The translations under genes were made by a program, and so were the position numbers. Shown here piece by piece: positions 33,897-50,272 of a stretch of 64,000 nucleotides of DNA; positions within the stretch are counted from its first letter, which is position 1, and every line of letters starts with the position of its first letter. The notes beneath the pieces are model-generated. The model was not told where the DNA came from, made no database searches, and saw nothing but the letters and a program-made list of their open reading frames with translations. Source of the stretch: Deltaproteobacteria bacterium (GTDB taxonomy: Bacteria; Myxococcota_A; Polyangia; Polyangiales; Houyiibacteriaceae); assembly GCA_034670305.1 (NCBI GenBank), contig JAXMNT010000034.1:17439-81438 (forward strand). The letters are read 5' to 3'.

Positions 33897-36218
33897 TCAG
33901 CGGCAGCGGAGCCGGCTGCTTCGGGTGGTGCTCGTACAACCCATCCCGGTGGGCGTCCCGATGCCTCCACACGCGCAGTCTTGGTGCGTGGTCGATTCGC
34001 CGCATTCGGCGGTGTGCGAGAGCGGACCAGCGCCGGCGCAGCGGCTCGTACACATGCTGCCCGACGTGGAGAAGCAGGTGACCGCGAGTGGCTGCTTCGT
34101 CTCGCCCGTCGAGCAGTCGTAGTCGAAACTCGCCGCCGTGCCCCCCATCCCACCACAGATGGTGGGGCAGTCCAACCCGTGGCTGGTGTAGCACCAGAAG
34201 CCTTCCCGAGCCGTGCGGGTGCAGTCACAGATGAGCGCGCCTGGGCTGTCGCAGTAGGGGGTGTCGAAGAAGCTGGTCTGATTGGGTCGCACGTCTTCGA
34301 GAAAGTCCCGGCAGTCCGTCTTGGGCAACGGCCCGCCCGCGCACGCGGCCCCCATGGGCGCGAACCCGTCGTTGTCGAAGTCTTCACTCACCAGGACCCC
34401 GCCACCGCTGCTGCAGTCGTTGTCGATGCGGTCGCAGATCTCGGTGGCCCCTGGGTTGACCGCGGACGCCCCGTCGTCGCAATCGGTGGTGTCGGTGTCG
34501 ACCGGTGCAGTCAGCGTGAAGTTGTCGCCGCACGCGCCGCAGATGCTCATGCCCATCGCGCCGCTCGGTGCGTAGCCATCGTCGTCCGCGTCCGCGTAGC
34601 AGGTCGTCGTGACCGTCTCGTCTACGGCGCCGTCGCAGTCGTCGTCGGCGCTGTTGCAGCTCTCGGCGACCGGCGAGATGGAGCACGCACCCCATGTCGC
34701 GCCTGGCCCACACGTTTCGGTGCCCGCCGCACAAGCGCCGGGCAACAGACAACCGCGTGACATGCCCGGCGTGCAGTCGCAGTCCTCGTTGACGGCGCCG
34801 TTGCAGTTCTCGTCCACACTCCCCGCGTCGCAGATCTCGGGCGCGCCGGGGTTGATCGCGAACACGCCGTCTTCGCAATCGGTCGCACCGGCTCCGGGTG
34901 GCCGGTTGGTCGTCGTCACGGGGCAGTTGCCCACCTCGGGTCGGCTCGCGTCGATGCAGCGCGACGCCCCGGTGGCTCCGCTGCCCGCGTAGGAGTCGCC
35001 GTCTCCATCTGGGTAGCAGGTGGCGCGAAGCATCTCGTCGACCGCGCCGTCGCAGTCGTCGTCGATGGAGACGCCTTCCAGGCAGACCTCCGAGGCACCC
35101 GGGCGCGACGCCGAACGATCGTCGTCGCAGTCGATGTCGGCCCCGGTCGGCGCACGGTTGGTCGAGTCGGTCGGGCAGCCCCCCACCGACTCGCGCCCCA
35201 CCTGCGGACACTCTGCGCGCGCGGTGGCTGCGGCGGGCGCGAAGCCGTCGTTGTCGAGGTCGTCGTAGCAAGTCACCGTCATGCCTTCGTCGGTCGCGCC
35301 ATCGCAGTCGTCGTCGACCTCGTTGCAGGTCTCGAGCTCCGGTTCGATCGTGCACGTCGCGCTCCAGGTCCCGCTGTCGCAGACCTCCACGCCCGCCGCG
35401 CAGGCGCCGCCGAGCGTACAGCCACGGGTCTCGCCCTCTTCACAGTCGCAGTAGCCTTCGGGGTTGGCCTCGCCATCGCAGTTCTCGTCCACCGGTGGCT
35501 CGGCGCTGTCGCAACGCTCCATCGCGCCGGGGTTGATCATGCTCTCGAGATCGTCGCAGTCGCCGTCGTTCTCCGCGAACCCTTCGGGTGCGCTGCATGC
35601 ATCGGTGGTCGTGCCGTCGATGTCTCCAAAGCCGTCGCCGTCGCCATCCGGCCAGTACGTGACCAGCACCTCTTCATCGACCAAACCATCGCAGTCGTCG
35701 TCGCGGCCATTGCAGCTCTCCGTGGCGTCGGGGTTGGTCCCCCGACGGGCGTCGTCGCAGTCGGAGCCGCAGACCAGCCCGCTGCCGTCTTCGTTGCAAC
35801 AGAGCGCGTCTGGGCTGTCGTCGCCGTCCACGTCGCGGAAACCAAACGTGCGCGGGTCGCAATCTTCGTCGACGTTCTCCAGATCGCAGACCTCAGCGTT
35901 GCCAGGGAAGCGACCGGGGTCCATGTCGTCGCAGTCGGCGCCGCCGCAGTCGGTACCGTCCACGCCATCGCCGTCGAGGTCGCACTCCGTTTCGTCGCAC
36001 GCATCGGCGACCTCATCGCAGACTCCATCGCAAGGCGCGCTCCCGGCTACACACGCGCCGTCGTTGCAGGTCTCGGTGCCATTGCAGAACCGGCCGTCGT
36101 CGCAGTCTGCCGCGGAGGTGCACAAACCACCGTCTCCCCCGGCGTCCGAAGTCATGGTGTCGTCGTCTCCGCAGGCAAGTGCCGCGCAGAGCAATACATA
36201 CAATGAAAGCCGTCCCAT
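33897..36218 (-). CDS. Lipoprotein with MopE-like putative metal-binding repeats (paralogue of 22086-23600)
   Basis: Lipobox ALAC; same repeat; shared DEDCDPRTFG block and terminal RCR. Confidence 0.85.
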   Translation of the reverse strand: MGRLSLYVLLCAALACGDDDTMTSDAGGDGGLCTSAADCDDGRFCNGTETCNDGACVAGSAPCDGVCDEVADACDETECDLDGDGVDGTDCGGADCDDMDPGRFPGNAEVCDLENVDEDCDPRTFGFRDVDGDDSPDALCCNEDGSGLVCGSDCDDARRGTNPDATESCNGRDDDCDGLVDEEVLVTYWPDGDGDGFGDIDGTTTDACSAPEGFAENDGDCDDLESMINPGAMERCDSAEPPVDENCDGEANPEGYCDCEEGETRGCTLGGACAAGVEVCDSGTWSATCTIEPELETCNEVDDDCDGATDEGMTVTCYDDLDNDGFAPAAATARAECPQVGRESVGGCPTDSTNRAPTGADIDCDDDRSASRPGASEVCLEGVSIDDDCDGAVDEMLRATCYPDGDGDSYAGSGATGASRCIDASRPEVGNCPVTTTNRPPGAGATDCEDGVFAINPGAPEICDAGSVDENCNGAVNEDCDCTPGMSRGCLLPGACAAGTETCGPGATWGACSISPVAESCNSADDDCDGAVDETVTTTCYADADDDGYAPSGAMGMSICGACGDNFTLTAPVDTDTTDCDDGASAVNPGATEICDRIDNDCSSGGGVLVSEDFDNDGFAPMGAACAGGPLPKTDCRDFLEDVRPNQTSFFDTPYCDSPGALICDCTRTAREGFWCYTSHGLDCPTICGGMGGTAASFDYDCSTGETKQPLAVTCFSTSGSMCTSRCAGAGPLSHTAECGESTTHQDCACGGIGTPTGMGCTSTTRSSRLRCR

Positions 36219-36324: not shown

Positions 36325-37662
36325 TCAGGTCGAGGGGCAGCCGAACGTGAAGTCGAGGCCGTCGTCCACCTCGGCCCCCTGTACGGCTTCGCAGGTGGCC
36401 GGACAGAGCGCGATCCCATCGTCGTCGTCGTACGCCCAGCCCCCGGCGGCGTCGCAGTCGTCGAGCGCCGCGACCGGCACCAGCAGTCCGCTGCCTTCCT
36501 CGTCCCGCACCGCGACGCTCAAGTGTTCGGGCTCGAACGTGCCGCCATCGGGAACCGGCGGGATCGGCGCGCTGCACTGGACGCGGCGGTTGCTCACGGT
36601 GGACTCCGTGAATGCCGTGGCGAACGGTGCCCACAGAGAGTCGCCGTCGCAGATCGAAACGCGAACGCCACCGGTGCGCGCGACCAGCTCGGTGTAGGTC
36701 AAGCCGCTGGCGCGCACATTGCTCCCGTCCCCGAAGCGGCACCGCACCGTCGCATCGTCCTCGTCTCCAAAGCCGTAGATGCCACTGACCACGTAGCCGT
36801 CCATGAGTCCGCCCCAGCGGGCATGGAGGATCCCCTCGGGTAGGGTCCGTGTGTTGAACGGGTTGGTGCCGCCCGGGCTCGACTCGAACCAATCGGCGGT
36901 GGCTGAGGGATCGCTCCCAGGAACGAAGCCCGCGTCGGTGGCGTCGACCATGCGCGCGTTGTTGTGGGTGACAAAGACCAGCGCCTTCGCGGCGTCGGGA
37001 CGCAAATGGTCCACCCACGCCGGGCCTCCTTGCGAGTCGCCTTCTCGGTAGCCATCGGTCTGCCCGAGCGTGCCGAGGAACTGCTCGAGCGGGCTCGCGC
37101 CTCCCATGTCGATGGAGACGTGGAAGAAGCGCGTGCCGTTTGAACAACTGCTGTCCGCACTCAGCGGCGGAGGCACACAGATCGCTTCGGTCCGCATGGG
37201 TCCCACCGAGGACTGTCGCAGGCTCAGGACGACCAAGCGGTGGTCGAGCCCACGTGCCGACAACGCAATGGCGATCATGTTCAGCTGGCGCTCGAACGCG
37301 CGCAGCGTGGGTGCCAGTGAGGACGAGTTCTCGACCACGAAGATCACGTCGACCGCATCGTGGTGCTCGAAGGTCGCGGCGACCGTCTCGGCGACGCATT
37401 CGTCGGGCGCGTCTCGCCCCACATCGGCGCTCCCATCCGGGCCCACGTCGGCGCTCCCATCCGGCCCGACATCGACGTGCCCCACATCGACGCGTGCATC
37501 CAGCCCGACATCCGCACCGGTCGCATCGACCGGCCCGACATCGACGGCCGTCGCATCCGGGGACGCGTCGGCAAGGCCCGCATCATCGAGGGGCGCGGGG
37601 TCCTCACCACACGCAAGAAGCAGAAGCACCAGGGACGCGAATACCCATTGAACACGAAGCAT
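36325..37662 (-). CDS. Myxobacterial vWA-like lipoprotein
   Basis: Lipobox LLAC; VDVIFVVENSSS (degenerate MIDAS); LRPDAAKALVFVT; C-terminal GWAYD...IALCPATC. Confidence 0.75.
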   Translation of the reverse strand: MLRVQWVFASLVLLLLACGEDPAPLDDAGLADASPDATAVDVGPVDATGADVGLDARVDVGHVDVGPDGSADVGPDGSADVGRDAPDECVAETVAATFEHHDAVDVIFVVENSSSLAPTLRAFERQLNMIAIALSARGLDHRLVVLSLRQSSVGPMRTEAICVPPPLSADSSCSNGTRFFHVSIDMGGASPLEQFLGTLGQTDGYREGDSQGGPAWVDHLRPDAAKALVFVTHNNARMVDATDAGFVPGSDPSATADWFESSPGGTNPFNTRTLPEGILHARWGGLMDGYVVSGIYGFGDEDDATVRCRFGDGSNVRASGLTYTELVARTGGVRVSICDGDSLWAPFATAFTESTVSNRRVQCSAPIPPVPDGGTFEPEHLSVAVRDEEGSGLLVPVAALDDCDAAGGWAYDDDDGIALCPATCEAVQGAEVDDGLDFTFGCPST

Positions 37663-38084
37663 GGGGTCGAGCATATCAGCAGCTCTTTGGTCGCCGACCG
37701 CTCGAGGTCGAACGGGATGGCGACCGACCCAGCGATCTCGTCGTGCGCCTCGGCCCACCCCACTTCCCCTTCTACGGGAGCCTCGGAACGCGGAGGAGCG
37801 TGGCTTCCGGTGAACGTCGGCGAAATGACCACCCACGGCGCAGCGGGCGAGTTCGCCGCCGTCGAGATGGTGCCCGGCGTGGACCCCGAATCGCTCGGAC
37901 CTGCTCTACCGGCTCTTCATTGAAGACCACGCTTCGCGTTGTCGGAGCGATTGCTTGGCATGCCAACGACTCATCCCCGGACCGAAGCGCGAAGCGCCCC
38001 GCAAGACCCAATGGCGGCAGCGCGCGAATCGCCCCGCGTCTGGGCTCCCGCAACTGTCGACCGGCTGTGTCGATGAGGGGCTTC

Positions 38085-39719
38085 GTGACCGCGCCGCGAG
38101 CGAGAGTGCATGGAGAGACGCTGGCGATGACGCGGCGGACGAACCTGCGGAAGTTCGTGCTCGGCAACTGGGACCCGCAGGTCTCGCAGATCTACCTGTA
38201 CTCACTTGGGGCGGCAGCGCTTGGTGCCGACGATGGGATGGGGGAGCGGCTGTCGGAGGCGGTGTTTCATCAGATCTGTTTGATGGGTACGCACCCGCAT
38301 GTGTTGTTGACCGATGTGCGCGGGCGGGCGCCGAGGATCTTTTGTCGGGCGCACTCGTGGAGCGCGAAGGCGATCAACGTGCTGCTTGCGAAGCGCGGCT
38401 ATCAGCGGCTTGGGCAGGTATACGACGGGCGGCAGATCTCGTTCGTCCGAACCATGGACTGGTCGGCGGAGTTGAAGCAGGTGCTGTATCAGTTCTTGAA
38501 CCCGGTGGCGGCGGGGTTGTGCGAGAAGGCGGCGGACTACGACGGGGTGTGCACGCCTTTGGAATGGATCGGTGGGTACCGGTTGCGGGTGAAGCGTCCG
38601 GATGTGTTCTTCGACCCGTCGTTTCCGGCCGAGGTCATTCTCGTGTTCGGTCCGCCGCCGGCGGCGTACATCGCGTATGGCGGGGATACGAAGCGGATGG
38701 TGGCGGACCTGCGAAGTGACGCGCGCAAGCAGGAGAAGGCGATCGCTGCGATGCGACCGTTTCCGGTGCTCGGCGAGCGGAAGATGCATCCGTGGGATGA
38801 ACCGAACACCTTGGTGGAACGGTGGAGTCCCAACCGGCCGCTTGTGACGATCGGTGTCGGTGGGGCCTGGGAACGCAAGCGGCTGCGGGAGCTCGTGCGG
38901 GCCGAAGTGGAGCAGTTCTGCGTTGGGCACGAGAAGGTGCGGCAGGAAGAGAAGGCGCAGATCGCGCGGCGGGTGAAGAAGGCAAAGGAGCGGAGACGCG
39001 CGGAGGCGCTGGAACGAGAACGTCCTGCACAGGAGTTGGAGTGCGGCTCCGAGGGCTCTCAGGAGCCTGCGCGCGAACAGGAGCCGGACACCGCCGCTCG
39101 TGAACAGGAACCGCAACCGGACACCGCTCGTGAACAGGAAGAGCCTGGAGGCGACGCGGTGCCTGGAGAAGAAGGCGACGAGGCACCCAAAGAGGAACGC
39201 GACATCGTGTACCCGTACGGCACCTACAAAGCGGCGCGCGAGCGACGCCACGAAGTGAAGCCGCCGAGTGGCGAGGCGTACTTCCTCGCGCCGGGTGTGT
39301 TCGACGAAGGCTGGGCCAGCCGGTACGTCGAGTGCGAGTTGCCGAAAGAGGTCGTGTTGGTGACCGGACGTGCGGTCGCGGACGAAGAGCGACGCAGCGA
39401 ACGAGAAGAGTCCGCCCAAGACGTCTCCGACTTCTACGGCACCATGTACGACAAGCTCGTCGAGCGTGAGAAGGAAGCCTCCTCGAGAGCCTCGAGTGCG
39501 GAGGTCGAAGACCAGGCGGATGAACCCACCGCCGCCACCGACCGCAACCAGCAGAAGAGCGCCACCAAGCGACCGAGCATCCAACCACCGATGGCACCGC
39601 ACCCAGTTCGCGAGCGCTACGAAAAGCGCCCCGACTTGTCCGACACCAACCGAGTCACCGTCCGCCGAGACCTCCTCCGACCAGGCGGAGCTCCTCGGTC
39701 CGACGAAGACCCCGACTGA
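38085..39719 (+). mobile_element. rayT: REP-associated tyrosine (HUH/Y1) transposase, RAYT, with acidic C-terminal extension
   Basis: MTRRT, LMGTHPHVL (HUH), Y..LNPVAAGL and YPYGTY motifs; flanked by palindromic repeats; start uncertain (38073 or 38085). Confidence 0.82.
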
Positions 39720-40446
39720 ACACCCTCAGCCGGCTGAAAGAGCCCAAGCGCGGCCCGGCAACAGCCCGAGCCGCGCACACCTGCGTCCGAAGCAAGACGC
39801 CAAGACCCAGAACCGCTCCAACAACCCCTCACAGCACCCATCCGGCTCCCAAGTGAACTGAGTTGCAGCGCATCCAGCGCAACAGCCCACCTCACGGAGC
39901 CGTCAAACGAAGTTCAAAAGCGTGCCAACGTCTCTCCCCCCGGACGGAGCGCGCGAAGCGCCCGTCCTCGAGAGCCTCGAGTGCGGAGGTCGAAGACGCG
40001 GATGAACCCACCGCCGCCACCGACCGCAACCAGCAGAAGAGCGCCACCAAACGACCAAGCATCCAACCACCGATGGCACCGCACCCAGTTCGCGAGCGCT
40101 ACGAAAAGCGCCCCGACTTGTCCGACACCAACCGAGTCACCGTCCGCCGAGACCTCCTCCGACCAGGCGGAGCTCCTCGGTCCGACGAAGACCCCGACTG
40201 AACACCCTCAGCCGGCTGAAAGAGCCCAAGCGCGGCCCGGCCACAGCCCGAGCCGCGCACACCTGCGTCCGAAGCAAGACGCCAAGACCCAGAACCGCTC
40301 CAACAGACCCTCACAGCACCCATTCGGCTCCCGAGTGAACCGAGCTGCAGCGCATCCAGCGCAACAGCCCACCTCACGGAGCCGTCAAACGAAGTTCAAA
40401 AGCGTGCCAACGTCTCTCCCCCCGGACGGAGCGCGCGAAGCGCCCG
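39480..40446 (+). repeat. Tandem duplication of about 485 bp (RAYT 3' end plus downstream REP)
   Basis: 39480-39964 versus 39965-40446; near-identical, with a 3-bp indel and a few substitutions. Confidence 0.95.
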
Positions 40447-40719
40447 ACCCAACAGCCCACCTCCCGGAGCCGTCAAACGAAGTTCAAAAGCGTGCCAACG
40501 TCTCTCCCCCCGGACGGAGCGCGCGAAGCGTCCCACCTCACGGAGCCGTCAAACGAAGTTCAAAAGCGTGCCAACGTCTCTCCCCCCGGACGGAGCGCGC
40601 GAAGCGCCCATCCTCTCCCCCCGGACGGAGCGCGCGAAGCGCCCTCGGAGCGCGCAAAGCGCCGCTCCGGGACGGAGTGCGCGAAGCGCCCCCCACGCGA
40701 ACGGAGCGCGTCCGCGCGG
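39886..40719 (+). repeat. REP cluster: 78-bp units ending in CCGGACGGAGCGCGCGAAGCGCCC
   Basis: Units at 39886, 40368, 40456 and 40532; shorter cores at about 40613, 40645, 40670 and 40697. Confidence 0.9.
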
Positions 40720-40779
40720 CTAGAGCGAATTGACTGTTGGGAAGGATTTGGCGGAAGCTGCCTCAGAAAGGTCTAAGGG

Positions 40780-41538
40780 ATGGAAAGAAGATACTGGAGC
40801 CAGTTCGTTGACGCCAAGACTGTGCTCGGATGGAGGTGTCCACGCTGCAACGTGGGGCACCTTGAAGCGGAAGCTGAAGGGTGGAGGGAGGAAGATGTGA
40901 AGGAGAGCGGGGGAGCGGACTGCGACTGGGAACCGGACTGGGTGCGAAACCTATGGACCGGCAGTTTGAGATGTAGGTCCTCGTCATGCGGCGATGTGGT
41001 GGTTGGTATGGGATACACGAGTCTGGATCAGGAGGTGGATGAGGAAGTCGGCCTCATTTGGGTATCCAGGTATCATCCGCTGCTGTTCGAGCCCCCACTG
41101 CACATCGTCGCTCTGCCCAAGTCGATTCCGGCTCTTTTGGAGACCGACCTGATCGAGGTTTTTCGACTGTACTGGGCATCGCCGTCAGCGGCAGCAAACC
41201 GACTCCGAGTAGCGATAGAGCACTACTTATCCTTGCAGAAGGTGCCGCGGTCACGGAGGACAAAGAAGGGGAAGCTTGTGACGCTGCCACTCCACACTCG
41301 CATTGAACGTTTCAAGCAGGCTCGCCGGACCAATGCGGACGTTGCCGACCATCTCCTGGCACTAAAGTGGCTCGGTAATGAGGGTACTCATGATGGAACG
41401 CTGACCCACGACGACGTCCTGGATGGGCTGGTGATTCTGGAGGAGGCCCTTCGGCACATTTCTGGAAACGCTTCGGCATCGAAGGCACTGACAATGTCGG
41501 TCAACAAGAACCGAGGGACCGGGAGGAAGAAGCGGTAG
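40780..41538 (+). CDS. DUF4145 (HEPN-like) domain protein with N-terminal Cys motif
   Basis: CPRC; AAANRLRVAIE, LHTRIERF and ALKWLGNEGTH; lower GC than flanks. Confidence 0.78.
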   Translation: MERRYWSQFVDAKTVLGWRCPRCNVGHLEAEAEGWREEDVKESGGADCDWEPDWVRNLWTGSLRCRSSSCGDVVVGMGYTSLDQEVDEEVGLIWVSRYHPLLFEPPLHIVALPKSIPALLETDLIEVFRLYWASPSAAANRLRVAIEHYLSLQKVPRSRRTKKGKLVTLPLHTRIERFKQARRTNADVADHLLALKWLGNEGTHDGTLTHDDVLDGLVILEEALRHISGNASASKALTMSVNKNRGTGRKKR

Positions 41539-41571
41539 AGACGGCGGGGCAACGCGAGGCTAAGGCCAGTA

Positions 41572-41692
41572 CCCCGGACGGAGCCGCCGAAGGCGTCGTC
41601 TCCCCGGACGAAGCGCGCGAAGCGCTTTAGACCGAGCGCGCGAGCGCTGCAAACGTCTCTCCCCTCGGACGGAGCGCGCGAAGGCGCGCGCG
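41572..41692 (+). repeat. Second REP cluster (four degenerate GGACGGAGCGCGCGAAG cores)
   Basis: Between the convergent DUF4145 and NTPase genes; same orientation as the first cluster. Confidence 0.85.
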
Positions 41693-41699
41693 TCGGCAT

Positions 41700-44600
41700 T
41701 TAGGTGAAGTCGATACCCACGACCGATATCGCTGCAACCGCTGGGTTGGTCGCTACAATCTTGGAGGCATAGTTTTGTAGGAGGATGAGGAGTCGATCGT
41801 ACTGAACCACGGAGCCCGTCGTGGGCTCCACCCACCCTTGCGAACGCCGCTCGGTCTGCGCAAGAACGAAGATGCCGTGCTTGGCCTGCCCATCTCGCAT
41901 ATAGCGACCAACGAGTTGATCTTCTATTGCGTGTTCTAAAGCAGGGATAGTGTATTGGTTCTTGGCGAGCCGCTTTAGCTCGATAGTTACGCGAGGAATC
42001 CCAGGAATATGAACGGAAATATCGGTCCTCTTGCTATCAAGAACCTCTGCTTCGCGAACCACAGAGTAGACGGTCCCCCAGCGAAAGTCGAGTTGGTCCG
42101 CCATCCACTCTGCAACTGCAGACTCCTCGGCGTGTGGGTGAACTAGACTACGATAAGAGTGATCGCCGGATTGCACCCGGTCAACTATTAGTGCGATGTG
42201 CCGCGTCAATAGGGTAAAGAGTTCGCGATCATCACTTGGTAGGCGCACATCGCAGCGTTCGATTGACAGGATATCGTCCGGGGTTAGGGTCAAAGACTCA
42301 AGGGACGCGCGCGAACGCAACTGGGCCGCTCGATAGAATGACAACTCTTCATGCCACGAAGAGAGAGAGGAAGATTGCATGAGGTGGTCGAAGAGCTGAG
42401 TTGCCGTCTCCGTACCGTTCTTGGATATGGAGTTCAAGATGTGAGTTCGATAGTACTCAGCTTCATCAGCATCTGTGGATGAGTATACAGTGTTGGCAGG
42501 ACGGTTCGGTGCTGTAATGCGAGAGAGTAGCAGTCGTACAAAGGGCAACAGTCGTGAGATATGGGAGAAGCTCCTGGCCTCCCTAGAGTCGAGAGTGCCA
42601 CGCAATAGATCGTTGGACATTCGAGCGGCGACTCCGGTGGCAAGCTCTGAGGGACAGCTACCGGGGCGCGAATCTATCCACGATGATGTGGCTTCAGGAT
42701 CCGTAATGAGACATCCCGTCAGAACAGGTATGAGTGCGCCAATATCGTCGGGGAGATCGTATCGGTCGCAGACTGTGGCCAGTGCGTCAGCGATGCATTC
42801 ATTCGAGCGCTCGGAGGCGAGTAGTATCGATGCCGCGTGGGCGCTCACCTCGGGTGAGCTTGGATTGGCGGTGCGGATCAACTCTATGATCTCGTCCGAC
42901 GCCATCTCTATGAGCCTAGGCCCAGCACCGGATAGCAGTCGTATGGACTGAGGAGTAGTGGTCCAATCGCGGCTAATCTCTCGTCTAATCCACTTGCGCG
43001 CGACCGAAGGGTGAATGGTGGCCAAGTGTGACACCCAGGACGGATAGCGATTGAGAGAGTGGGCGGCATGCCTGAACAGCAGCGCGGCTTCGCTGGGACT
43101 GACGTCCTCGGGTCGACCTCCTTCTGCGAACCACACTTGAGCGCTGAGAAGCCCTACTACGCCGAGGGGATTGACTTTTGTTGGGGTGGGTCCCAGCGGG
43201 GCGAAGGTGGACCATACATCCCGGATTCCACGGAGGAGTAGCTCGGCGACCGTGTTCCCGAGGTACGCTACAACACGCTCACGCGAATACTCAAATCGGT
43301 CTGATGAGAACCCCAGCTGGGCAAACCAAGGCTGGTTCGCCAGTTGACACAGCAGCCCGAGGTGGCCGTTCTCCAGAGCGTGGGCATTGCATGCTAGGCA
43401 GCGAATACGTCGGATCTTCGCCAACCTGTCTTTTGCAGCCTGTCGTCGGGCAGACCGGCCAGCCGAAGTCGGTGGATTCATGGTTGCTAGTGCTGCGGGA
43501 AACGATGCAAGGATGGCGGCACGGTGTGACGAATCGCTGCCCCCTTCTAGATACAGTCGACACAGCAGATGGACGGCGACGAACTCCTCCGCATTCGGAA
43601 TGTGTTTTTTGAGAAATGGGCTTAGCCACGGAGTATCCGCAGGCTTGAAGCGCCAGGATCGGCTACTTTGGACCCACGCGAAGAGGCGTTTTTTATTGCG
43701 GACTATGGCGTCCGTGAGCAGGATTTCACGCAAGTTTATGGTGGCTTGGCTCAGAGCTGTCGCGAGTGAATCTAGCGGTAGATCGTATCGGTGCTCCGCG
43801 CTCCGCTCCAGGAAACTAAGTGCATCCAGTAGGATTGGCATCAATCTCGGCGGAATTGGCTGTCGTCGGATGACCAATCTCGATACGACTTCTTCTAGGA
43901 GTCTTGCAACCCACAGATGCTTCTTGTTGCAGATTCGACCTCCACGTGATCGTGTGCGGGAGTAGAAGTGGGCAATAGTGTGGAGTCCACGCGCAAGTCT
44001 CCAAAGCGAACGCTCCGGCGCGCGGTTGCTGACGGCGCTGACTAGAGAAGCATCTGCTGCGAGGTCGGCACCAACCATCTGCGCAACTAGTGCCAGAACT
44101 TGGTTGGTAGACAGTTGGTCTGGGAACGCAACTCGGACTAGCGAAGAAATGAGTTCGGGGGGCGGAGTGGGGAGTATGCGTTCCGCAATCTTGCGCACGA
44201 TGTGCGGAGGGGCAGAGGCAGTTGCCTCGATGGCGGAGGCTCGGGTTTCTAGTGACCGCGTGGGGTCGATCGCAATGGCAACGAGCTCGCTACTTGCCTG
44301 GGTGAGCAAGCCACTCTCAGCAAGACCAAGTAGGAGCTGGAATACTAGTTCGCTTGTTCCTGGAGTAGAGCAAGCGGTGCGAAGGACAATCGCTATTTCT
44401 TGTTCGATTGGCGCATGTGCGAGACTGGCGATGGCAGTAGGTGTGAGCCAGTTGTCTGGTCGAAGCTGAGAGTCGTGCTGGTGGATCCAGTTGGTGAGGC
44501 ACTTGGAGAGGGTCGACCTGGGAAGCAGGTAGGGTGCACCGTGAAACAGCAGGGCACCTGGGTCATGCTCGGTCAGACGCTGACGAACCGCGGTATTCTC

Positions 44601-45710
44601 AATGGCAACCCAAGCCGCAATAGCCCGTCGACCAGGAGGCACCTGGACGCAATCCGGGAGGGGAACGAACAGTAGATCAGCTGGATCAAGCGAAGCACTT
44701 CGGGTTCTTCGATCGAGCCATTTTGCCGCAAGATAGTCGACGGATTCGAGTCTCTGAAAGCGAACCGCGTCTACGGAAGCCGAACCGAACAACGCAGATC
44801 CCAGGAGCCATGGGATTAGCTCCGGGCGCCACGTCGGCAATACGACGTGCGGGTCAATCATCTGCGGGTGACTAGCACTGGAGGTTGCGATGGAGGGGCT
44901 CACCCCGAAGGCGATGCAGGCAGCCAGAGTCTGTAGGGCAGAGTACGCGTCCTCGCGGCTGGGCATGGCTGGAGCGGGATGGTGGTCGCCGCATCCATCC
45001 AGGATTGATCTGTGGAGTCGCTCGTGTGGTAGCCCCAGTTTTCCTGTGTCGCGCCATTCACGGGCAGCTTGCACCGCCTGAAGTGGCCAGAGAACTACAC
45101 TTGCGCCACCGACCGACCGAAGCCGGTGGAGGAACTGGTCGACGTCGGCTATTCCATTGTCCTCCGCGATACGTCGGACATCCGAGTTGCTCAGTGGGTT
45201 GAGCCTGTAGTACAGGATCTGCTGGTTCGGTTGGAGATCCAAAGCGGCTCGAAGCCGTTCTGGATCTGTCAGGACATCCCAGTCGCGATTGCGCGATGTG
45301 ATGATATATCGTGCGGGTCCGTGCACGGACTGAAAGGCTCGAAGTCGGGCCAATGCAATCGTCAGGCCCTTCGGGTTATGGCGAACTGATTGGTCCGCAC
45401 CGTCCAGTAGGTAGAGTGGGTTGGAGTCTAGACCTATCGTAGTCTTGAGAAGTACGCCGGGGTCAAGGTGCACCATTTCCTCGATATCAAGAAAATGGTG
45501 ATTCTCAAGTTTGGAGAGCTGCTGAAGCTCCGTGGTCTTACCGCTCCCAGCTGGACCTAGGATAACCACGCAGAACGCGTTGGAGGTGAGTCTGGTCTGG
45601 ATATCAACCCAGCTAGCCCTCGCGCCGTCCACATGAGAGGTAGCACGAGGATCTTGAAGCTGATGGAAGCGTCGCTCTAGTGAGCTCAGCTTCCCTGGAG
45701 TTGGCATCAC
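41700..45710 (-). CDS. NACHT/STAND-like NTPase with C-terminal PD-(D/E)XK nuclease-like domain; putative defence protein
   Basis: GPAGSGKTTEL, YLLDGAD, YIITSR; helical middle region; REAEVLDSKRTDI...IELK...QLVGRY; atypically low GC. Confidence 0.78.
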   Translation of the reverse strand: MMPTPGKLSSLERRFHQLQDPRATSHVDGARASWVDIQTRLTSNAFCVVILGPAGSGKTTELQQLSKLENHHFLDIEEMVHLDPGVLLKTTIGLDSNPLYLLDGADQSVRHNPKGLTIALARLRAFQSVHGPARYIITSRNRDWDVLTDPERLRAALDLQPNQQILYYRLNPLSNSDVRRIAEDNGIADVDQFLHRLRSVGGASVVLWPLQAVQAAREWRDTGKLGLPHERLHRSILDGCGDHHPAPAMPSREDAYSALQTLAACIAFGVSPSIATSSASHPQMIDPHVVLPTWRPELIPWLLGSALFGSASVDAVRFQRLESVDYLAAKWLDRRTRSASLDPADLLFVPLPDCVQVPPGRRAIAAWVAIENTAVRQRLTEHDPGALLFHGAPYLLPRSTLSKCLTNWIHQHDSQLRPDNWLTPTAIASLAHAPIEQEIAIVLRTACSTPGTSELVFQLLLGLAESGLLTQASSELVAIAIDPTRSLETRASAIEATASAPPHIVRKIAERILPTPPPELISSLVRVAFPDQLSTNQVLALVAQMVGADLAADASLVSAVSNRAPERSLWRLARGLHTIAHFYSRTRSRGGRICNKKHLWVARLLEEVVSRLVIRRQPIPPRLMPILLDALSFLERSAEHRYDLPLDSLATALSQATINLREILLTDAIVRNKKRLFAWVQSSRSWRFKPADTPWLSPFLKKHIPNAEEFVAVHLLCRLYLEGGSDSSHRAAILASFPAALATMNPPTSAGRSARRQAAKDRLAKIRRIRCLACNAHALENGHLGLLCQLANQPWFAQLGFSSDRFEYSRERVVAYLGNTVAELLLRGIRDVWSTFAPLGPTPTKVNPLGVVGLLSAQVWFAEGGRPEDVSPSEAALLFRHAAHSLNRYPSWVSHLATIHPSVARKWIRREISRDWTTTPQSIRLLSGAGPRLIEMASDEIIELIRTANPSSPEVSAHAASILLASERSNECIADALATVCDRYDLPDDIGALIPVLTGCLITDPEATSSWIDSRPGSCPSELATGVAARMSNDLLRGTLDSREARSFSHISRLLPFVRLLLSRITAPNRPANTVYSSTDADEAEYYRTHILNSISKNGTETATQLFDHLMQSSSLSSWHEELSFYRAAQLRSRASLESLTLTPDDILSIERCDVRLPSDDRELFTLLTRHIALIVDRVQSGDHSYRSLVHPHAEESAVAEWMADQLDFRWGTVYSVVREAEVLDSKRTDISVHIPGIPRVTIELKRLAKNQYTIPALEHAIEDQLVGRYMRDGQAKHGIFVLAQTERRSQGWVEPTTGSVVQYDRLLILLQNYASKIVATNPAVAAISVVGIDFT

Positions 45711-45715
45711 CTACC

Positions 45716-48700
45716 TCACGAACACCCCATCGAGTTCCCGCAGTTCAGGCACTTATAACAAGCCCCATTCCGAACCGTAATGTTCCCACACTTCTCGCAC
45801 ATGGGCGCATCCCCCATCATCTCCCCAAGCTGCTGACTCAGCGCATTCTTCGGCCCACCAGCCACAGCCGGCTTCGCCCCCTCAGTCGCCGCGTCCGCCG
45901 AAGCAGAGTCATCAAACCCAAACGTCGCCTGCTCGGCCTTCTTGAACTCAGCCGGCGGAGGCGTGGAATGCCCGGCCGTCCCCTCGGCCCGCTGCGCCGC
46001 CGACACATCGGTCGCGCTCAGAAGCTCTTCCTGCTCCTCCTTCGGAGGCACCTGGGCAAAGTCGTACCGCTTCAAGTACTCGACGCCCAACACCCTAAAG
46101 ACGTAGTCGATGATGCTCGTGGAGAACTTGATGTTCGGGTGGCCTTCGACGATGCCGCCGGGCTCGAACCGCGTGAACGTGAACTGGTTGATGTAGTTCT
46201 CGAGCGGGACGCCGTGCTGCAGGCCCATGGAGATCGAGATGGCGAAGCAGTTCATCAGGCTGCGGAAGCTGGCGCCTTCTTTGTGCATGTCGATGAAGAG
46301 CTCGCCGAGGGAGCCGTCGTCGTACTCGCCGGTGCGGAGGAACACTTTGTGTCCGCCGATGCGGGCTTCTTGGGTGAAGCCGCTGCGCTTCTTCGGCAGG
46401 CGGTGCCGCACGCTGTCGGGCGGGCGCAGGCCTTCTTGGGAGGCGTTGGCGACGCGCGGGCGCGCGGGCGCGGTGATGTCTCCGTTCGAGGTGATCTTCG
46501 TGACCTTGGCGGCGAGCGTCTCGGTCTCTTCTTCGTCCTCGTTGTCCTCGTCGGACTGGGCGCTGAGCGGCTGGCTCATCTTGCAGCCGTCGCGGTAGAG
46601 GGCGATGGCCTTGAGGCCGAGCTTCCAGCCCTCCATGTAGATCTCTTCGATCTCTTCGACGGTGGCCTCGTTGGGGAGGTTGACGGTCTTGCTGATCGCG
46701 CCGGAGAGGAACGGCTGGGCGGCCGCCATCATGCGGATGTGCGACATGGCGGCGAGGAAACGTTCGCCCTTCTTGCCGCAGCGGTTGGCGCAGTCGAAGA
46801 CCGGCAGGTGCTCGGGGCGAAGGTGCGGGGCGCCTTCGATGGTCATGCGGCCGATGACGACCTCGTTGAGCTCTTCGATCTGCTTTCCGTCGAGGCCCCA
46901 GTGGCGGAGGATGGAGAAGCCGGGCGCGTTCATCTCTTCGGGCGTGATGCCGAGGCGCTCGTAGGCTTCCGGTCCGATGATCCACGGCGCGAGCGCGAAG
47001 CTCACGTCGAAGACGCCGCGCAGTTCGACTTCGGCCTTCTCGACTTCGCGTTCGGTGAGGCCCTTCTCGAGGAGCGCTTTGCGGCCGAGGTGCGGCGCGC
47101 CGGTGAAGGTGTTGGTGCCGGTGACGTAGCTGACGATCTCGGCGGCCTGGCCTTCGGTGTAGCCGAGCTTCTTGAGGGCGCCGGGCACGCTCTGGTTGAC
47201 GATCTTGAAGTACCCGCCGCCGGCGAGCTTCTTGAACTTCACGAGGGCGAAGTCCGGCTCGATGCCGGTGGTGTCGCAGTCCATGAGCAGACCGATCGTG
47301 CCGGTGGGCGCGAGCACGGTCGCCTGCGAGTTGCGGTAGCCGTAGAGCTCACCGAGGCGGACGGCGAGGTCCCAGTCCTGGCGCGCCGCGCGCACGAGGT
47401 AGTCCGGGCAACCCGCGGGTTTGTCCTCGGCGATGCCGGGGCCGCCGGGCTCGTCGATCTGGTAGGCGGCGTCGCGGTGTTTGTTCATCACGCGGAGGAA
47501 GGGCTGCCGGTTCTTGGTGTAGCCGGGGAACGGGCCCTTGCTCGAGGCGATCTCGGCGCTGGTCGCGAAGGCGTGACCGCACATGATGCTCGTGAGGGAG
47601 CTGGCGATCGAGCGGCCGAGGTCGCTGTCGTAGGGGATGCCGAGGCGCATCAGCATGGTGCCGAGGTTGGCGTAGCCGAGGCCGAGCGGGCGGTAGTCGT
47701 GGCTGTTCTTCGCGATGTCGCGGGTGGGGTAGCTCGCGAGGTCGACGAGGATCTCCATCGCGAGGATGAGGACGCGGATCGCCTGGCGGTAGCCGTCGAC
47801 GTCGAAGCGGCCCTCTTCGTCGACGAACTTCACCAGGTTGATCGACGCGAGGTTACAGGCCGAGTCGTCGAGGAACATGTACTCGGAGCACGGGTTCGAC
47901 GCGTTGATGCGGTCCGTGTTCGGGCACGTGTGCCAGTCGTTGATGGTGGTGTCGTACTGGACGCCGGGATCGGCGCACTCCCAGGCGGCTTCGGCGACCA
48001 TGCGCCACAGCTCGCGGGCCTTGTAGGTGTTCACCACGTCGCCGGTGGTGCGCATCTTCGTCTGGTGGTCGCCGTTGGTCTCGACCGCCTTCATGAACTC
48101 GTCCGTGACGCGCACGGAGTTGTTCGAGTTCTGGCCGCTGACGGTGTGGTAGGCCTCGCCGTTGAAGTCGCTGTCGTAGCCGGCGGCGATGAGGGCGCGT
48201 GCTTTGCGCTCTTCGCGGCTCTTCCACTGGATGAAGTCGCTGATCTCCGGGTGGTCCATGTCGAGGCAGACCATCTTGGCGGCGCGGCGGGTGGTGCCAC
48301 CGCTCTTGGTCGCGCCGGCCGCACGGTCGAGCACTTCGAGGAAGCTCATCAGGCCGCTCGAGGTGCCGCCGCCGGAGAGCTTCTCCTGGCGACCGCGGAT
48401 GTGGCTGAAGTTGGAGCCGGTGCCGGAGCCGAACTTGAAGAGGCGCGCTTCGTTCTGGACGAGCTGGTAGATGGCCATCAGGTCGTCGTCGACGCCCTGG
48501 ATGAAGCAGGCGGAGCACTGGGGCTGCGCGTAGGCGTTGTCGGTCTGGATGATCGCGTCCTTGCGGGGATCCCAGAACCAGTTGCCCTCGGCGCCGACGA
48601 TCTCGTACTCGTGCCAGAGGCCGCAGTTGAACCAGACCGGCGAGTTGAAGGCGGCCTTCTGGAGGAGGAGCAGGTGGACGAGCTCGTTCTCGAAGTTCTC

Positions 48701-49099
48701 GGCGGCGGCTTCGTCGGCGAAGTACCCGCCGAGCTCTTCGCCGGTGCGGCGAATGGTGTGGGCGACGCGGTGCACGAGCTGCTTGGCGCTGCGCTCGCCT
48801 TTGTTCTTGTCGCCGTGCAGGCCGGCTTTGCGGAAGTACTTGGAGACCGCGATGTCGGTGGCGAGCTGAGACCAGCCGACCGGGACTTCGACGCCCTTGA
48901 GCTCGAAGACGACCGAGCCGTCGGAACCGGTGATGATGCTGTTGCGAAGCTCGAACTCGACCGTGTCGTACGGGTTCTCGCCCGCACGGGTGAGCTTGCG
49001 ATCGATGTGCAGGCCCCCCGACTGCTGCGTCACCTCCGCGCGACGAAGCGCTCCGTCCACCATTTGCTCGCCATCCATCTTCCGGGTCTCTAGTGCCAC
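45716..49099 (-). CDS. nrdJ: Vitamin B12-dependent (class II) ribonucleotide reductase
   Basis: FNSPVWFN, QCSACFI, NPCSEY, ACNLAS, APTGTIG, GAISKTVN, YRDG; C-terminal Cys cluster; GTG start chosen from a GGAGG RBS. Confidence 0.96.
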   Translation of the reverse strand: MALETRKMDGEQMVDGALRRAEVTQQSGGLHIDRKLTRAGENPYDTVEFELRNSIITGSDGSVVFELKGVEVPVGWSQLATDIAVSKYFRKAGLHGDKNKGERSAKQLVHRVAHTIRRTGEELGGYFADEAAAENFENELVHLLLLQKAAFNSPVWFNCGLWHEYEIVGAEGNWFWDPRKDAIIQTDNAYAQPQCSACFIQGVDDDLMAIYQLVQNEARLFKFGSGTGSNFSHIRGRQEKLSGGGTSSGLMSFLEVLDRAAGATKSGGTTRRAAKMVCLDMDHPEISDFIQWKSREERKARALIAAGYDSDFNGEAYHTVSGQNSNNSVRVTDEFMKAVETNGDHQTKMRTTGDVVNTYKARELWRMVAEAAWECADPGVQYDTTINDWHTCPNTDRINASNPCSEYMFLDDSACNLASINLVKFVDEEGRFDVDGYRQAIRVLILAMEILVDLASYPTRDIAKNSHDYRPLGLGYANLGTMLMRLGIPYDSDLGRSIASSLTSIMCGHAFATSAEIASSKGPFPGYTKNRQPFLRVMNKHRDAAYQIDEPGGPGIAEDKPAGCPDYLVRAARQDWDLAVRLGELYGYRNSQATVLAPTGTIGLLMDCDTTGIEPDFALVKFKKLAGGGYFKIVNQSVPGALKKLGYTEGQAAEIVSYVTGTNTFTGAPHLGRKALLEKGLTEREVEKAEVELRGVFDVSFALAPWIIGPEAYERLGITPEEMNAPGFSILRHWGLDGKQIEELNEVVIGRMTIEGAPHLRPEHLPVFDCANRCGKKGERFLAAMSHIRMMAAAQPFLSGAISKTVNLPNEATVEEIEEIYMEGWKLGLKAIALYRDGCKMSQPLSAQSDEDNEDEEETETLAAKVTKITSNGDITAPARPRVANASQEGLRPPDSVRHRLPKKRSGFTQEARIGGHKVFLRTGEYDDGSLGELFIDMHKEGASFRSLMNCFAISISMGLQHGVPLENYINQFTFTRFEPGGIVEGHPNIKFSTSIIDYVFRVLGVEYLKRYDFAQVPPKEEQEELLSATDVSAAQRAEGTAGHSTPPPAEFKKAEQATFGFDDSASADAATEGAKPAVAGGPKNALSQQLGEMMGDAPMCEKCGNITVRNGACYKCLNCGNSMGCS

Positions 49100-49756
49100 A
49101 CTTGCCTCCAACCTGCGTCCCATCGGGACATCACTCAACGTTTCTCGCTCGCTCACAACCACTCACTCGTACTCAACAACACACGGCTTCCGACCGACGG
49201 GGACGAACTGGGTTGGATCGTTGCTGGAGCGCGTCACTCCGATCTTCTGCGTACAGTCTGGCCGATCCGGGGGATCCAGGGGATCCGGGAGCGGTTGTGC
49301 GGAGGGCCGAGCGCTGACGTCTTCTGCGTCGAGCGATGCGGATGCCTCGTTGCACTCTTCTTGCACTCTTGATGCGCGCTTCATGCGATCCGACCTCGTG
49401 CGGACCGATCTTCACTTCCTTCGTCACACAGCGGTGCCCTCGGAATGAGTCCCCAACTCATCCACTTCCAACTCACAGGCACAGCCCCGTTTTCCACCGT
49501 GTACCCACAAGGGGTTGGGCTGGTCCGTAGGCGACCTCCACAACCCCTAGGGGAAGACCCGTTGCTACGCTGTCCTGGCGAGAGGGTCAAGCGACGAATC
49601 GAACGCTCTCTGACGACTGGGTTCAAGCAGCTGAAATCATGATGATTTCCGCGTTCGCCGACATCGTCGCCGGATGTGCACCACGCGTACACATTTGGGG
49701 TGTCAAAGGAGCTACGAACATGCGGTGTGTGGCCACGTAGTGTCACGACGTGAACC

Positions 49757-49772
49757 CTACTAGATGTAGTGG
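49757..49772 (-). promoter_or_regulatory. NrdR box
   Basis: CCACTACATCTAGTAG on the minus strand fits the acaCwAtATaTwGtg consensus, upstream of nrdJ. Confidence 0.7.
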
Positions 49773-50272
49773 TGTCGCCCCAAAAAAAGCGCAAGAGGCA
49801 GGGGTGGATGCACAGGTCTCGAAGGATGTGGGGGAGGTAGCAAGCGTGGATCGCTCGGGTGACCACTGGGTGTCATCTGAGGCTCGGGGACGGATCGAAT
49901 TCGGGAGATCGTCTCGGTAAAGACGGGGTGTTCTGGGATCTCGGAGGGCGGTGGACACGGGATTCGAATTGGATCGGCCGCTCGAGGCGGGTTTGGGGGA
50001 GGCCGAATGTCTCAACTACGGTGCCATCCCGGTGTGACATGGAAAGCGGAGATCGTGTAAGTGGCTGGGATGGTTGGGTTTTTTGTGGGTTGTGGATGCG
50101 GGCGGGGTTTTGGGGTGGAGAGGTTCGAAACGGTCGTTTTTCGGGATCCGGCGTTTGGCGGAGGGGGCACAAAGTGAGGGGTCAGTGGGCCAATGTTGTC
50201 GGGGTGGGGCGGTGGGGGTGGGGAAATGGGGTGGGGGTGGAATTTGGGGGCGCGGGAGGTCGGGACGGGACC

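Follow-up and report, generated by a model that had tools for sequence, protein, structure and literature searches.

[quoted passage not shown] In some bacterial NACHT proteins, the effector has been described as lying at the very C-terminal end, beyond the repeats (Kibby et al., preprint, Supplementary Discussion). The name bNACHT64 does not occur in the text of that preprint. NCBIfam holds two relevant families, NF058534 ('NACHT domain-containing antiphage protein HyoA') and NF058535 (EruA). From the stems of these names, we take HyoA to be Hypnos and EruA to be Erebus. A literature search with the names HyoA/EruA, Hyo/Eru and 'Hyo system' returned nothing relevant; the 'Eru' of STEC papers is a phage replication unit and not this protein family.

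The gene considered here lies in a stretch of 64,000 nucleotides (the window) from a myxobacterium that is Polyangiales-like by its nearest nrdJ records. It is intact and encodes a large immune-receptor-like protein, a very distant member of this known antiphage family. Its 4-kb frame has no internal stop and a foreign base composition (GC 0.57, GC3 0.59). The ATG at 45707 is a likelier true start than the GTG at 45710: a Shine-Dalgarno-like word, GAGG, stands at 45717-45714, 6 nt ahead of the ATG, and a database protein of 1335 aa (P0003) is 100% identical to the product of the frame. The gene and the parts of its protein are as follows.

41700..45710, minus strand: whole open reading frame, 1336 codons from GTG 45710, stop codon at 41700-41702
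44511..45710, minus strand: NACHT module, residues ~1-400 (lead, P-loop NTPase, helical domain, winged helix, second helical domain)
45534..45557, minus strand: Walker A GPAGSGKT, residues 52-59, from the translation of the frame
45390..45404, minus strand: Walker B D103-G-A-D106-Q107, the NACHT signature D[GAS]hDE, ending in Gln (codon CAA) instead of Glu
45291..45293, minus strand: R140, the Arg of a T-S-R motif after the AF2-predicted strand 134-139, R in 82 of 82 relatives
42246..44510, minus strand: helical HEAT/TPR-like region, residues ~401-1155, presumed sensor, from AF2 helices, alphaRep/HEAT matches and column entropy
41703..42245, minus strand: predicted PD-(D/E)xK (restriction-endonuclease-like) domain, residues ~1156-1336, from AF2, VIA-align and the motif
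41901..42053, minus strand: catalytic-type motif E1220...D1230...E1244-x-K1246...Q1265-L-x-x-x-Y1270, kept in 86 of 86 relatives

An earlier note on this DNA had read the protein as a STAND/NACHT NTPase with a Walker A at about residue 50 and no room for an N-terminal effector, and the structural models bear this out. In the AF2 model of residues 1-560 (mean pLDDT 89.4), a P-loop NTPase is followed by helical and winged-helix domains in the NLR-like arrangement of the NACHT clade. The best Foldseek match of this model was NOD2 (E 6.4e-8, prob 1.00), with further matches to NLRP14, NLRC4, NLRP3 and Avs4 (8dgf, E 2.1e-5); NLRs led the 101 chains found at E<=1e-3. The 44 residues that precede the first P-loop strand are modelled as one short strand and one helix and form no domain. 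The Walker A is well conserved among 82 relatives (G55 in 74, G57 in 81 and K58 in 80). The Walker B holds the one-residue departure in an otherwise typical NACHT module. Its signature has been given as D[GAS]hDE (Kibby et al., preprint), of which the D[GAS]hD part is present as D103-G-A-D106 and the final Glu is absent. Position 107 is E in 81 of the 82 relatives and D in one, with Q found only here among the 83 sequences. Q107 could weaken or abolish ATP hydrolysis. R140 is presumably sensor 1.

The earlier note had made its reading depend on a restriction-endonuclease fold at the C-terminus, and AF2, VIA-align and the motif all point to such a fold. The string that it had described, E..(K)RTDI..IELK..QL..Y, is found as E1220, K1227-R-T-D1230-I, I-E1244-L-K1246 and Q1265-L..Y1270. 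At seven positions (E1196, E1220, D1230, E1244, K1246, Q1265 and Y1270), all 86 aligned relatives carry the same residue as this protein (alignment A2). The AF2 model of residues 1090-1336 (mean pLDDT 88.9) has the order alpha-beta-beta-beta-alpha-beta, with D1230 just before strand 2, E1244 and K1246 in strand 3, and Q1265 and Y1270 in the next helix. Both the order and the placing of D and ExK are those of the canonical PD-(D/E)xK core. VIA-align matched the model to CdiA-CT (Z 8.9, rmsd 2.9, 123 aligned), BamHI (7.8), LlaBIII (7.7), BstYI (7.5) and Can2 (7.5), and its best 25 rows held, by title, 13 restriction enzymes, 4 Can2/Card1 nucleases and 1 HamA. Z values of 7-9 are, according to the tool, in the range that unrelated models can reach, and Foldseek gave no match to the C-terminal model at E<=1e-3; the fold call thus leans on the motif as well. 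At the sequence level, no solved nuclease was matched (the PDB sequence search was empty) and Pfam HSDR_N stayed sub-threshold (E 0.0076). The C-terminal PD-(D/E)xK domain with D...ExK expected of an Avs10 protein is present here as a predicted fold with a conserved motif.

Between the two ends lies a long helical region, again as the earlier note had it. The model of residues 1-560 shows helices from about residue 359 to 560, and positions ~440-606 of a family profile give matches to HEAT-like alphaRep repeats (best E 5e-7). Residues 501-850 and 901-1050 are the most variable of the protein (highest column entropy). In residues 501-800 the entropy is about 3.0-3.15 bits, and relatives are 12-16% identical to this protein. 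A conserved island, residues 851-900, holds an invariant W892. A complex prediction that paired residues 400-1085 of the sensor with an HK97-type capsid protein of 312 aa, run without controls, gave no answer either way, scoring 0.00 against a mark of 0.32; the capsid was a stand-in taken from a prophage-like region of another host (related genome G004). The window's own genome was found to hold no PF05065 capsid gene.

The profile of HyoA covers the protein end to end (residues 11-1336 aligned to positions 1-1428 of the 1430 in the profile, E 7.4e-137). Its score of 457.9 bits does not reach the equivalog cut-off of 1200 bits, and the protein was thus filed as a distant superfamily relative and not as HyoA proper. 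The EruA match is partial (residues 296-1281 on profile positions 267-1267) and, at 182.8 bits, below the cut-off of 1000. An exhaustive search with residues 137-1336 against 1.8 billion representatives returned 1734 cluster representatives at E<=1e-3, of which 281 reached E<=1e-30; almost all are 1300-1480 aa long. The closest relative is 27% identical overall and none exceeds 29%. Given this identity and the gap between 458 and 1200 bits, function is not simply transferable. HyoA outscored EruA in all 34 of the best exhaustive-search matches scanned (455-1427 bits). Among 13 word-index matches, seven of the eight Hyo-like proteins pass the HyoA cut-off and one of the five Eru-like proteins passes that of EruA. 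In a FastTree tree built from 547 N-terminal columns only, the protein branches at the base of the Hypnos-like side, a placement that is unsure for so long a branch; its terminal branch is the longest of all (1.87 against a median of 0.71). A locus search with the single protein as query found no relative. PADLOC, a check that the earlier note had proposed, gave with its 2023 models only weak sub-threshold matches, as did Pfam, and neither yielded a usable assignment. The note had seen in it an anti-phage NLR-like protein of inverted architecture. The layout stands, and the antiphage role is likely by homology to the families named by NCBI; the idea of an undescribed architecture is not supported, given the Kibby et al. 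preprint, more than 1000 cluster representatives that have this layout from end to end, and the families HyoA/EruA and Avs10.

The reading that we favour, and consider probable, places the protein in the Avs10 superfamily (Hypnos/HyoA, Erebus/EruA and bNACHT64), as an NLR-like antiphage receptor that works as a single protein and belongs to a deep and rapidly evolved lineage on the Hypnos-like side. The N-terminal NACHT module would keep the receptor in its off state until the alpha-helical repeat region of ~750 residues binds a protein of the phage; going by the tested Avs10 proteins, this would most likely be an HK97-fold major capsid protein. Binding would lead to nucleotide-dependent oligomerisation, which would gather the C-terminal PD-(D/E)xK domains; DNA would be degraded, the phage stopped and the cell lost. 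The analysis shows the three-part build of the protein, its NACHT fold, a restriction-endonuclease-like fold whose catalytic motif is wholly conserved, homology from end to end to the named antiphage families, and a foreign composition. That this copy acts against phages, what triggers it, that it oligomerises and that its nuclease cuts DNA are inferred. With the sensor less conserved than any other part, the trigger of this copy may be another than in the tested Avs10 proteins.

The nearest rival, which we consider unlikely, keeps the same receptor and nuclease output and lets the diverged sensor read another phage protein, or a guarded host factor, in place of the capsid. The variability of the sensor region, down to 12-16% identity in residues 501-800, and the low identity to even the closest relative speak for it, as does the report that Avs families read differing phage proteins via similar helical sensors (Lee et al., PMC13581612). 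Against it, the same study places tested members of both the Erebus and the Hypnos branch under one trigger class, and describes Avs sensors as recognising folds across homologues despite little sequence similarity. The island at 851-900 with its invariant Trp also suggests a shared sensor scaffold.

A more elaborate proposal, which we regard as doubtful, would set the protein apart from both Hypnos and Erebus as a third deep lineage, combining Q107 as a non-resetting switch, a sensor retargeted to Polyangiales phages and expression coupled to nrdJ, the gene upstream. If true, the Q107 switch would bind ATP and barely hydrolyse it, giving a one-shot receptor without reset. Translational coupling to nrdJ would tie the receptor level to dNTP demand, and the nrdJ site would be a lineage-specific landing pad at which NACHT receptors with a nuclease or a patatin lipase swap.

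It is improbable that the gene is a decaying or altered relic, in which Q107 has disabled the ATPase cycle and the protein is inert or kept for some other nrdJ-linked role. Q107 stands where nearly all relatives have E, the terminal branch is the longest in the tree, and the protein falls short of typical members by about 100 residues and has several small deletions. These points are set against an open 4-kb frame in a gene of foreign composition, and against the retention of the seven nuclease residues, the Walker A, D103, D106, R140, W144 and P209, which argues for continuing selection. D106 is still acidic next to the altered site. Moreover, an active Avs8 has degenerate Walker motifs (Lee et al., PMC13581612, Extended Data Fig. 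11 legend), so that hydrolysis may be dispensable.

The features of the locus are as follows.

45716..49162, minus strand: nrdJ, class II (B12-dependent) ribonucleotide reductase, upstream on the same strand, of native composition
45705..45718, minus strand: junction of nrdJ and the NACHT gene, with the nrdJ stop TGA at 45718-45716, GAGG at 45717-45714, GTG at 45710 and ATG at 45707
41572..41686, no strand: GC-rich local repeat in 3-4 copies, core CCCCGGACGGAGCGCGCGAAG, in the 3' intergenic space before a convergent DUF4145 gene

The composition of nrdJ (GC 0.65, GC3 0.91) contrasts with that of the NACHT gene, and the latter is horizontally acquired. It is present as a single copy in the 7.9-Mb genome, and distant homologues occur in two of 40 related genomes. 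The NACHT gene starts 5-8 nt past the nrdJ stop and, lying directly behind nrdJ, is probably transcribed together with it; nrdJ itself is not part of the system. The DUF4145 neighbour was rejected as a second component, as tblastn placed it beside none of the family members at loci L004, L009 and L020-L022, and no known defence system was found beside the NACHT gene. The site behind nrdJ was also considered as a general defence hotspot and rejected, since 78 other nrdJ loci had no family member in their flanks, and among the nrdJ loci of 19 relatives, 7 of which end at a contig end, a NACHT gene occurs only in that of G012, where it carries a patatin lipase and not a nuclease. A role outside defence, in which a nuclease under NACHT control would serve DNA metabolism or repair along with the ribonucleotide reductase, is very improbable, since the tight junction, with its ribosome-binding word overlapping the nrdJ stop, and the other NACHT gene behind nrdJ in G012 are outweighed by the absence of family members at the 78 other loci and their rarity (1 of 19, 7 of these cut by contig ends) among relatives, by the lipase of the G012 neighbour, by the composition foreign to the host and by the naming of the whole family as antiphage by NCBI.

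The gene is otherwise an ordinary horizontally acquired immune gene, with an architecture that has already been described, and not a new kind of system. It extends the Avs10-type design of NACHT, sensor and nuclease to uncultured Polyangiales-like myxobacteria, where it takes a form overlooked by standard defence annotation. Its natural Walker B Gln variant could also help to find out if ATP hydrolysis is important in the Avs10-type family.

Several known systems can be compared with this protein. The PD-(D/E)xK nucleases (BamHI, BglII, Can2/Card1, CdiA-CT EC869 and HamA) share the core fold and the E..D..ExK..Q residues on canonical elements, and differ in that the solved ones give no sequence-level match. 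Avs1-5/AVAST and the classical NLRs share a STAND NTPase switch and a large helical sensor for phage proteins. Their classical tripartite layout has the effector N-terminal to the NTPase, whereas here only the 44-residue lead precedes the P-loop strand and the nuclease comes last. The bNACHT proteins with C-terminal effectors, as far as the preprint describes them, share the NACHT domain, the helical repeats and the effector in last place. Erebus/EruA has the same architecture and C-terminal motif, with a weaker, partial profile match and 16-17% identity (alignment A1). Hypnos/HyoA comes closest. The present protein differs from it in its shorter length and small deletions, in the lack of a ~36-residue insert that HyoA proteins carry after residue ~157 (alignment A1), in the Walker B Gln and in its host, the named Hypnos-like matches being from Pseudomonas and Brevundimonas. 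With Hypnos/HyoA it shares end-to-end collinearity, the order of NACHT, helical sensor and C-terminal PD-(D/E)xK domain, the same invariant nuclease and NTPase residues, and the form of a single-gene system.

The gene under study encodes a NACHT-nuclease protein whose anatomy, folds, motifs and homology are shown by its sequence and predicted structures. It is a single open frame directly downstream of a class II ribonucleotide reductase gene, nrdJ. Their positions in the window are as follows.

41700-45710, minus strand: NACHT gene, single open frame of 1336 codons
45716-49162, minus strand: nrdJ, class II B12-dependent ribonucleotide reductase (Ribonuc_red_lgC, E 4.9e-137; Ribonuc_red_2_N; TSCPD)

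The NACHT gene frame opens with GTG at 45710, directly followed by ATG at 45707. The ATG is the likelier start, since the identical database protein P0003 is 1335 residues long. The nrdJ stop codon (TGA, 45718-45716) is overlapped by a GAGG word (45717-45714) that lies 6 nt ahead of this ATG. The two genes abut, with no room between them for a promoter or terminator, and a consensus scan of window 41200-50200 returned no promoter-like site. The NACHT gene is of foreign origin. Its GC content is 0.57 (GC3 0.59) versus 0.65 (GC3 0.91) for nrdJ, and GC per 2 kb is 0.56-0.59 across 41-46 kb of the window and mostly 0.65-0.73 elsewhere in it.

The N-terminal part of the protein was modelled with AlphaFold2 (residues 1-560, 83 rows, mean pLDDT 89.4, pTM 0.88). 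In a Foldseek search against the PDB, this model matched 101 chains at E<=1e-3. NOD2 was the best (6.4e-8), followed by NLRP14, NLRP2, NLRC4 and NLRP3, with Avs4 at 2.1e-5. A Walker A motif had been placed near residue 50 in an earlier note, and GPAGSGKT is indeed present at residues 52-59. The same note saw no room for an N-terminal effector. The model agrees, as the first P-loop strand spans residues 45-51 and is preceded by a short strand and one helix only, with no effector domain ahead of it. When 82 relatives were aligned to the N-terminal 560 residues, D103, R140, W144 and P209 were identical in all 82, K58 in 80 and D106 in 81.

The NACHT signature is given as D[GAS]hDE in the part of the Kibby preprint that describes it. 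Walker B of the NACHT-nuclease protein reads D-G-A-D-Q, with the codon CAA at position 107, where the 82 relatives carry E in 81 cases and D in one. In AAA+ and STAND proteins, a Glu-to-Gln change in Walker B usually leaves ATP binding intact and severely impairs hydrolysis. Degenerate Walker motifs are mentioned for KpAvs8 in a figure legend of Lee et al. (PMC13581612).

The C-terminal part was modelled with similar means (AlphaFold2, residues 1090-1336, 87 rows, mean pLDDT 88.9). Foldseek returned no match at E<=1e-3 for this model; the best row was McrC (6.3e-3), and other weak rows include SfsA, PaqCI, EndoMS, BglII and OkrAI. VIA-align against 48,161 representative chains placed CdiA-CT first (4g6u, Z 8.9, rmsd 2.9, 123 residues), followed by BamHI (7.8), LlaBIII (7.7), BstYI (7.5), Can2 (7.5), BglII (7.4), OkrAI (7.3) and PaqCI (7.3). 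The best 25 rows hold 13 restriction enzymes by title, four Can2/Card1 nucleases and one HamA. Z values of 7-8 are possible without kinship, and Z alone therefore leaves the C-terminal fold unsettled.

The fold was decided by the motif residues. The C-terminal string reported earlier was found as E1220, KRTD1230I, IE1244LK1246 and Q1265L..Y1270. Across 86 relatives aligned to the C-terminal 247 residues, E1196, E1220, D1230, E1244, K1246, Q1265 and Y1270 were each identical in all 86. The PD-(D/E)xK fold has an established canon for the placement of its motif on the core elements. In the model, D1230 lies just ahead of strand 2 (model 142-146), E1244 and K1246 lie within strand 3 (model 149-159), Q1265 and Y1270 lie within the following helix (model 166-181), and E1196 starts the first core helix. 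Because the invariant residues sit exactly at the canonical places, their placement settles the domain as a PD-(D/E)xK restriction-endonuclease-like fold. The nuclease-like C-terminus proposed earlier stands, since the lack of such a fold, which the note named as refuting it, did not come true.

The two structure models cover residues 1-560 and 1090-1336. A long helical region had been expected after the NTPase, and it is seen as helices spanning residues 398-560 of the N-terminal model and as family-profile matches to HEAT-like alphaRep proteins (profile positions ~440-606, best E 5e-7). Column entropy peaks in residues 501-850 and 901-1050. Lower values are seen for the NACHT module, for the nuclease and for residues 851-900, an island in which W892 is invariant. 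The profile is consistent with a diversifying sensor flanked by two conserved modules.

Pfam gave sub-threshold matches only, to HSDR_N at residues 1215-1274 (E 0.0076) and to NACHT at residues 48-67 (E 0.014). A PADLOC search of the protein gave no usable assignment, and a sequence search of the PDB gave no match. The NCBIfam profile "NACHT domain-containing antiphage protein HyoA" aligned from end to end at E 7.4e-137, with 457.9 bits versus a cut-off of 1200, and NCBIfam EruA scored 182.8 bits versus a cut-off of 1000. From the name stems, HyoA is presumably Hypnos and EruA Erebus. A word-index search returned 13 relatives besides the protein itself, all sharing 27% identity or less; the HyoA cut-off was passed by seven of eight Hyo-like relatives and the EruA cut-off by one of five Eru-like. 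When residues 137-1336 were searched exhaustively, 1734 representatives scored E<=1e-3; 1168 of them reached E<=1e-10 and 281 reached E<=1e-30. Nearly all are 1300-1480 aa long. The best non-self match showed 27% identity at 255 bits, and identity stayed at or below 29% in all 150 matches listed. All 34 best matches, when scanned, scored higher with HyoA than with EruA (455-1427 bits; three above cut-off). In a FastTree phylogeny of 547 N-terminal columns, rooted on the Eru-like rows, the protein had the longest end branch (1.87 versus a median of 0.71). This branch leaves the Hypnos-like side at its base, from an unresolved fork, a placement flagged unsure by the tool. The protein is a singleton lineage. 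Its gene is present once in its own genome, and distant homologues occur in 2/40 related genomes (26-32% identity).

The nrdJ gene is present in 23/24 relatives. Two related genomes carry NACHT or STAND-like genes behind it.

L020:10289-14794, minus strand (genome G012), 257 nt downstream of nrdJ, same strand as nrdJ: 1501-aa protein, NACHT and patatin
L022:11176-13821, minus strand (genome G007), downstream of nrdJ: two STAND-like ORFs (202 aa, 651 aa)

The complete genome G012 has an nrdJ 85% identical to that of the window. In its 1501-aa protein, roughly the initial 750-790 residues correspond to the NACHT-plus-sensor half of the Erebus/Hypnos type: EruA profile positions 17-737 matched within residues 1-746 at 176 bits, and the family HMM matched residues 49-789 (E 1.1e-51). 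The protein ends in a patatin-like phospholipase (PF01734, E 1.6e-27) in place of the nuclease. Pairwise, it is barely alike to the NACHT-nuclease protein (BLASTP E 0.028). The arrangement suggests that effectors were swapped within the superfamily, at a chromosomal site shared with the window. An IS200-like Y1 transposase ORF follows the gene. In G007, the 202-aa ORF has AAA_22/AAA_16/nSTAND1 matches (E 1e-10 to 7e-5), and the STAND-like ORFs are unrelated to the NACHT-nuclease family. The nrdJ site as a general hotspot was ruled out, because no family member flanks nrdJ in 78 other nrdJ loci and only G012 carries one among the loci of 19 relatives, of which seven run off the contig end.

On the other side of the NACHT gene, the window holds the following features.

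40780-41538, plus strand: DUF4145 protein, 252 aa (E 1.9e-14), convergent with the NACHT gene
37140-39719, plus strand: 859-aa ORF without Pfam family, adjoining a repeat array
33897-36218, minus strand: protein of 773 aa carrying six putative metal-binding repeats of the MopE type (PF11617, E 1.8e-38)

The DUF4145 gene has a low GC (0.58) and a faint PD-Lambda-5_A match (E 0.0085). It is perhaps another gene of foreign origin, with a possible link to defence. None of the other NACHT-nuclease family members examined had it as a neighbour. The DUF4145 gene is flanked on both sides by a GC-rich local repeat (window 39516-40689 and 41572-41686) with the core CCCCGGACGGAGCGCGCGAAG in 36-93-nt units, in five exact and several near copies. 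A 300-nt duplication is also present (39516-39815 and 39998-40297, 99%). Genome-wide, the repeat has 11 matches at <=2 mismatches, seven of them in this region. ORFs called inside the repeats (39863-40733) are probably not genes. The 859-aa ORF, in high-GC DNA, may not be a real gene either; it weakly matches a REP-associated tyrosine transposase (NF047646, E 0.0066, residues 375-467). The MopE-type repeat protein fits a myxobacterial origin, as the nearest nrdJ records suggest.

An HK97-type major capsid protein of 312 aa was found in two related genomes.

L121:1435-2373 (genome G004): capsid gene
L118:1468-2406 (genome G017): capsid gene

This protein is 85-97% identical across >100 clusters (formed at 90% identity). 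A length of 312 aa is kept in nearly all, and some of the genes lie on 0.4-7.3 Mb contigs in MAGs of Myxococcales, Polyangiaceae and others. Conservation so unusually high for a phage capsid suggests a domesticated or GTA-like element. PF05065 had no match in the window's own genome.

For the activity, trigger, oligomerisation and substrate of the NACHT-nuclease protein, we infer most likely an Avs10-type one-protein receptor. The helical sensor would bind a phage protein, nucleotide-dependent assembly via the NACHT module would follow, and the C-terminal nuclease would be switched on last. Passages of the Kibby preprint place some bacterial NACHT effectors at the extreme C-terminus, past the repeats, and consider that folding probably brings these to the same location. 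Lee et al. state that "Avs10 (Erebus/Hypnos/bNACHT64) sensed MCPs" (Nature 2026, PMC13581612), with the names referenced to Kibby 2023 and van den Berg 2024. In the same text, Avs7, Avs8 and Avs10 are reported to bind the A-domain of the capsid protein at the interface that forms capsomers. The NACHT-nuclease protein is a very divergent new member of an already known kind of system.
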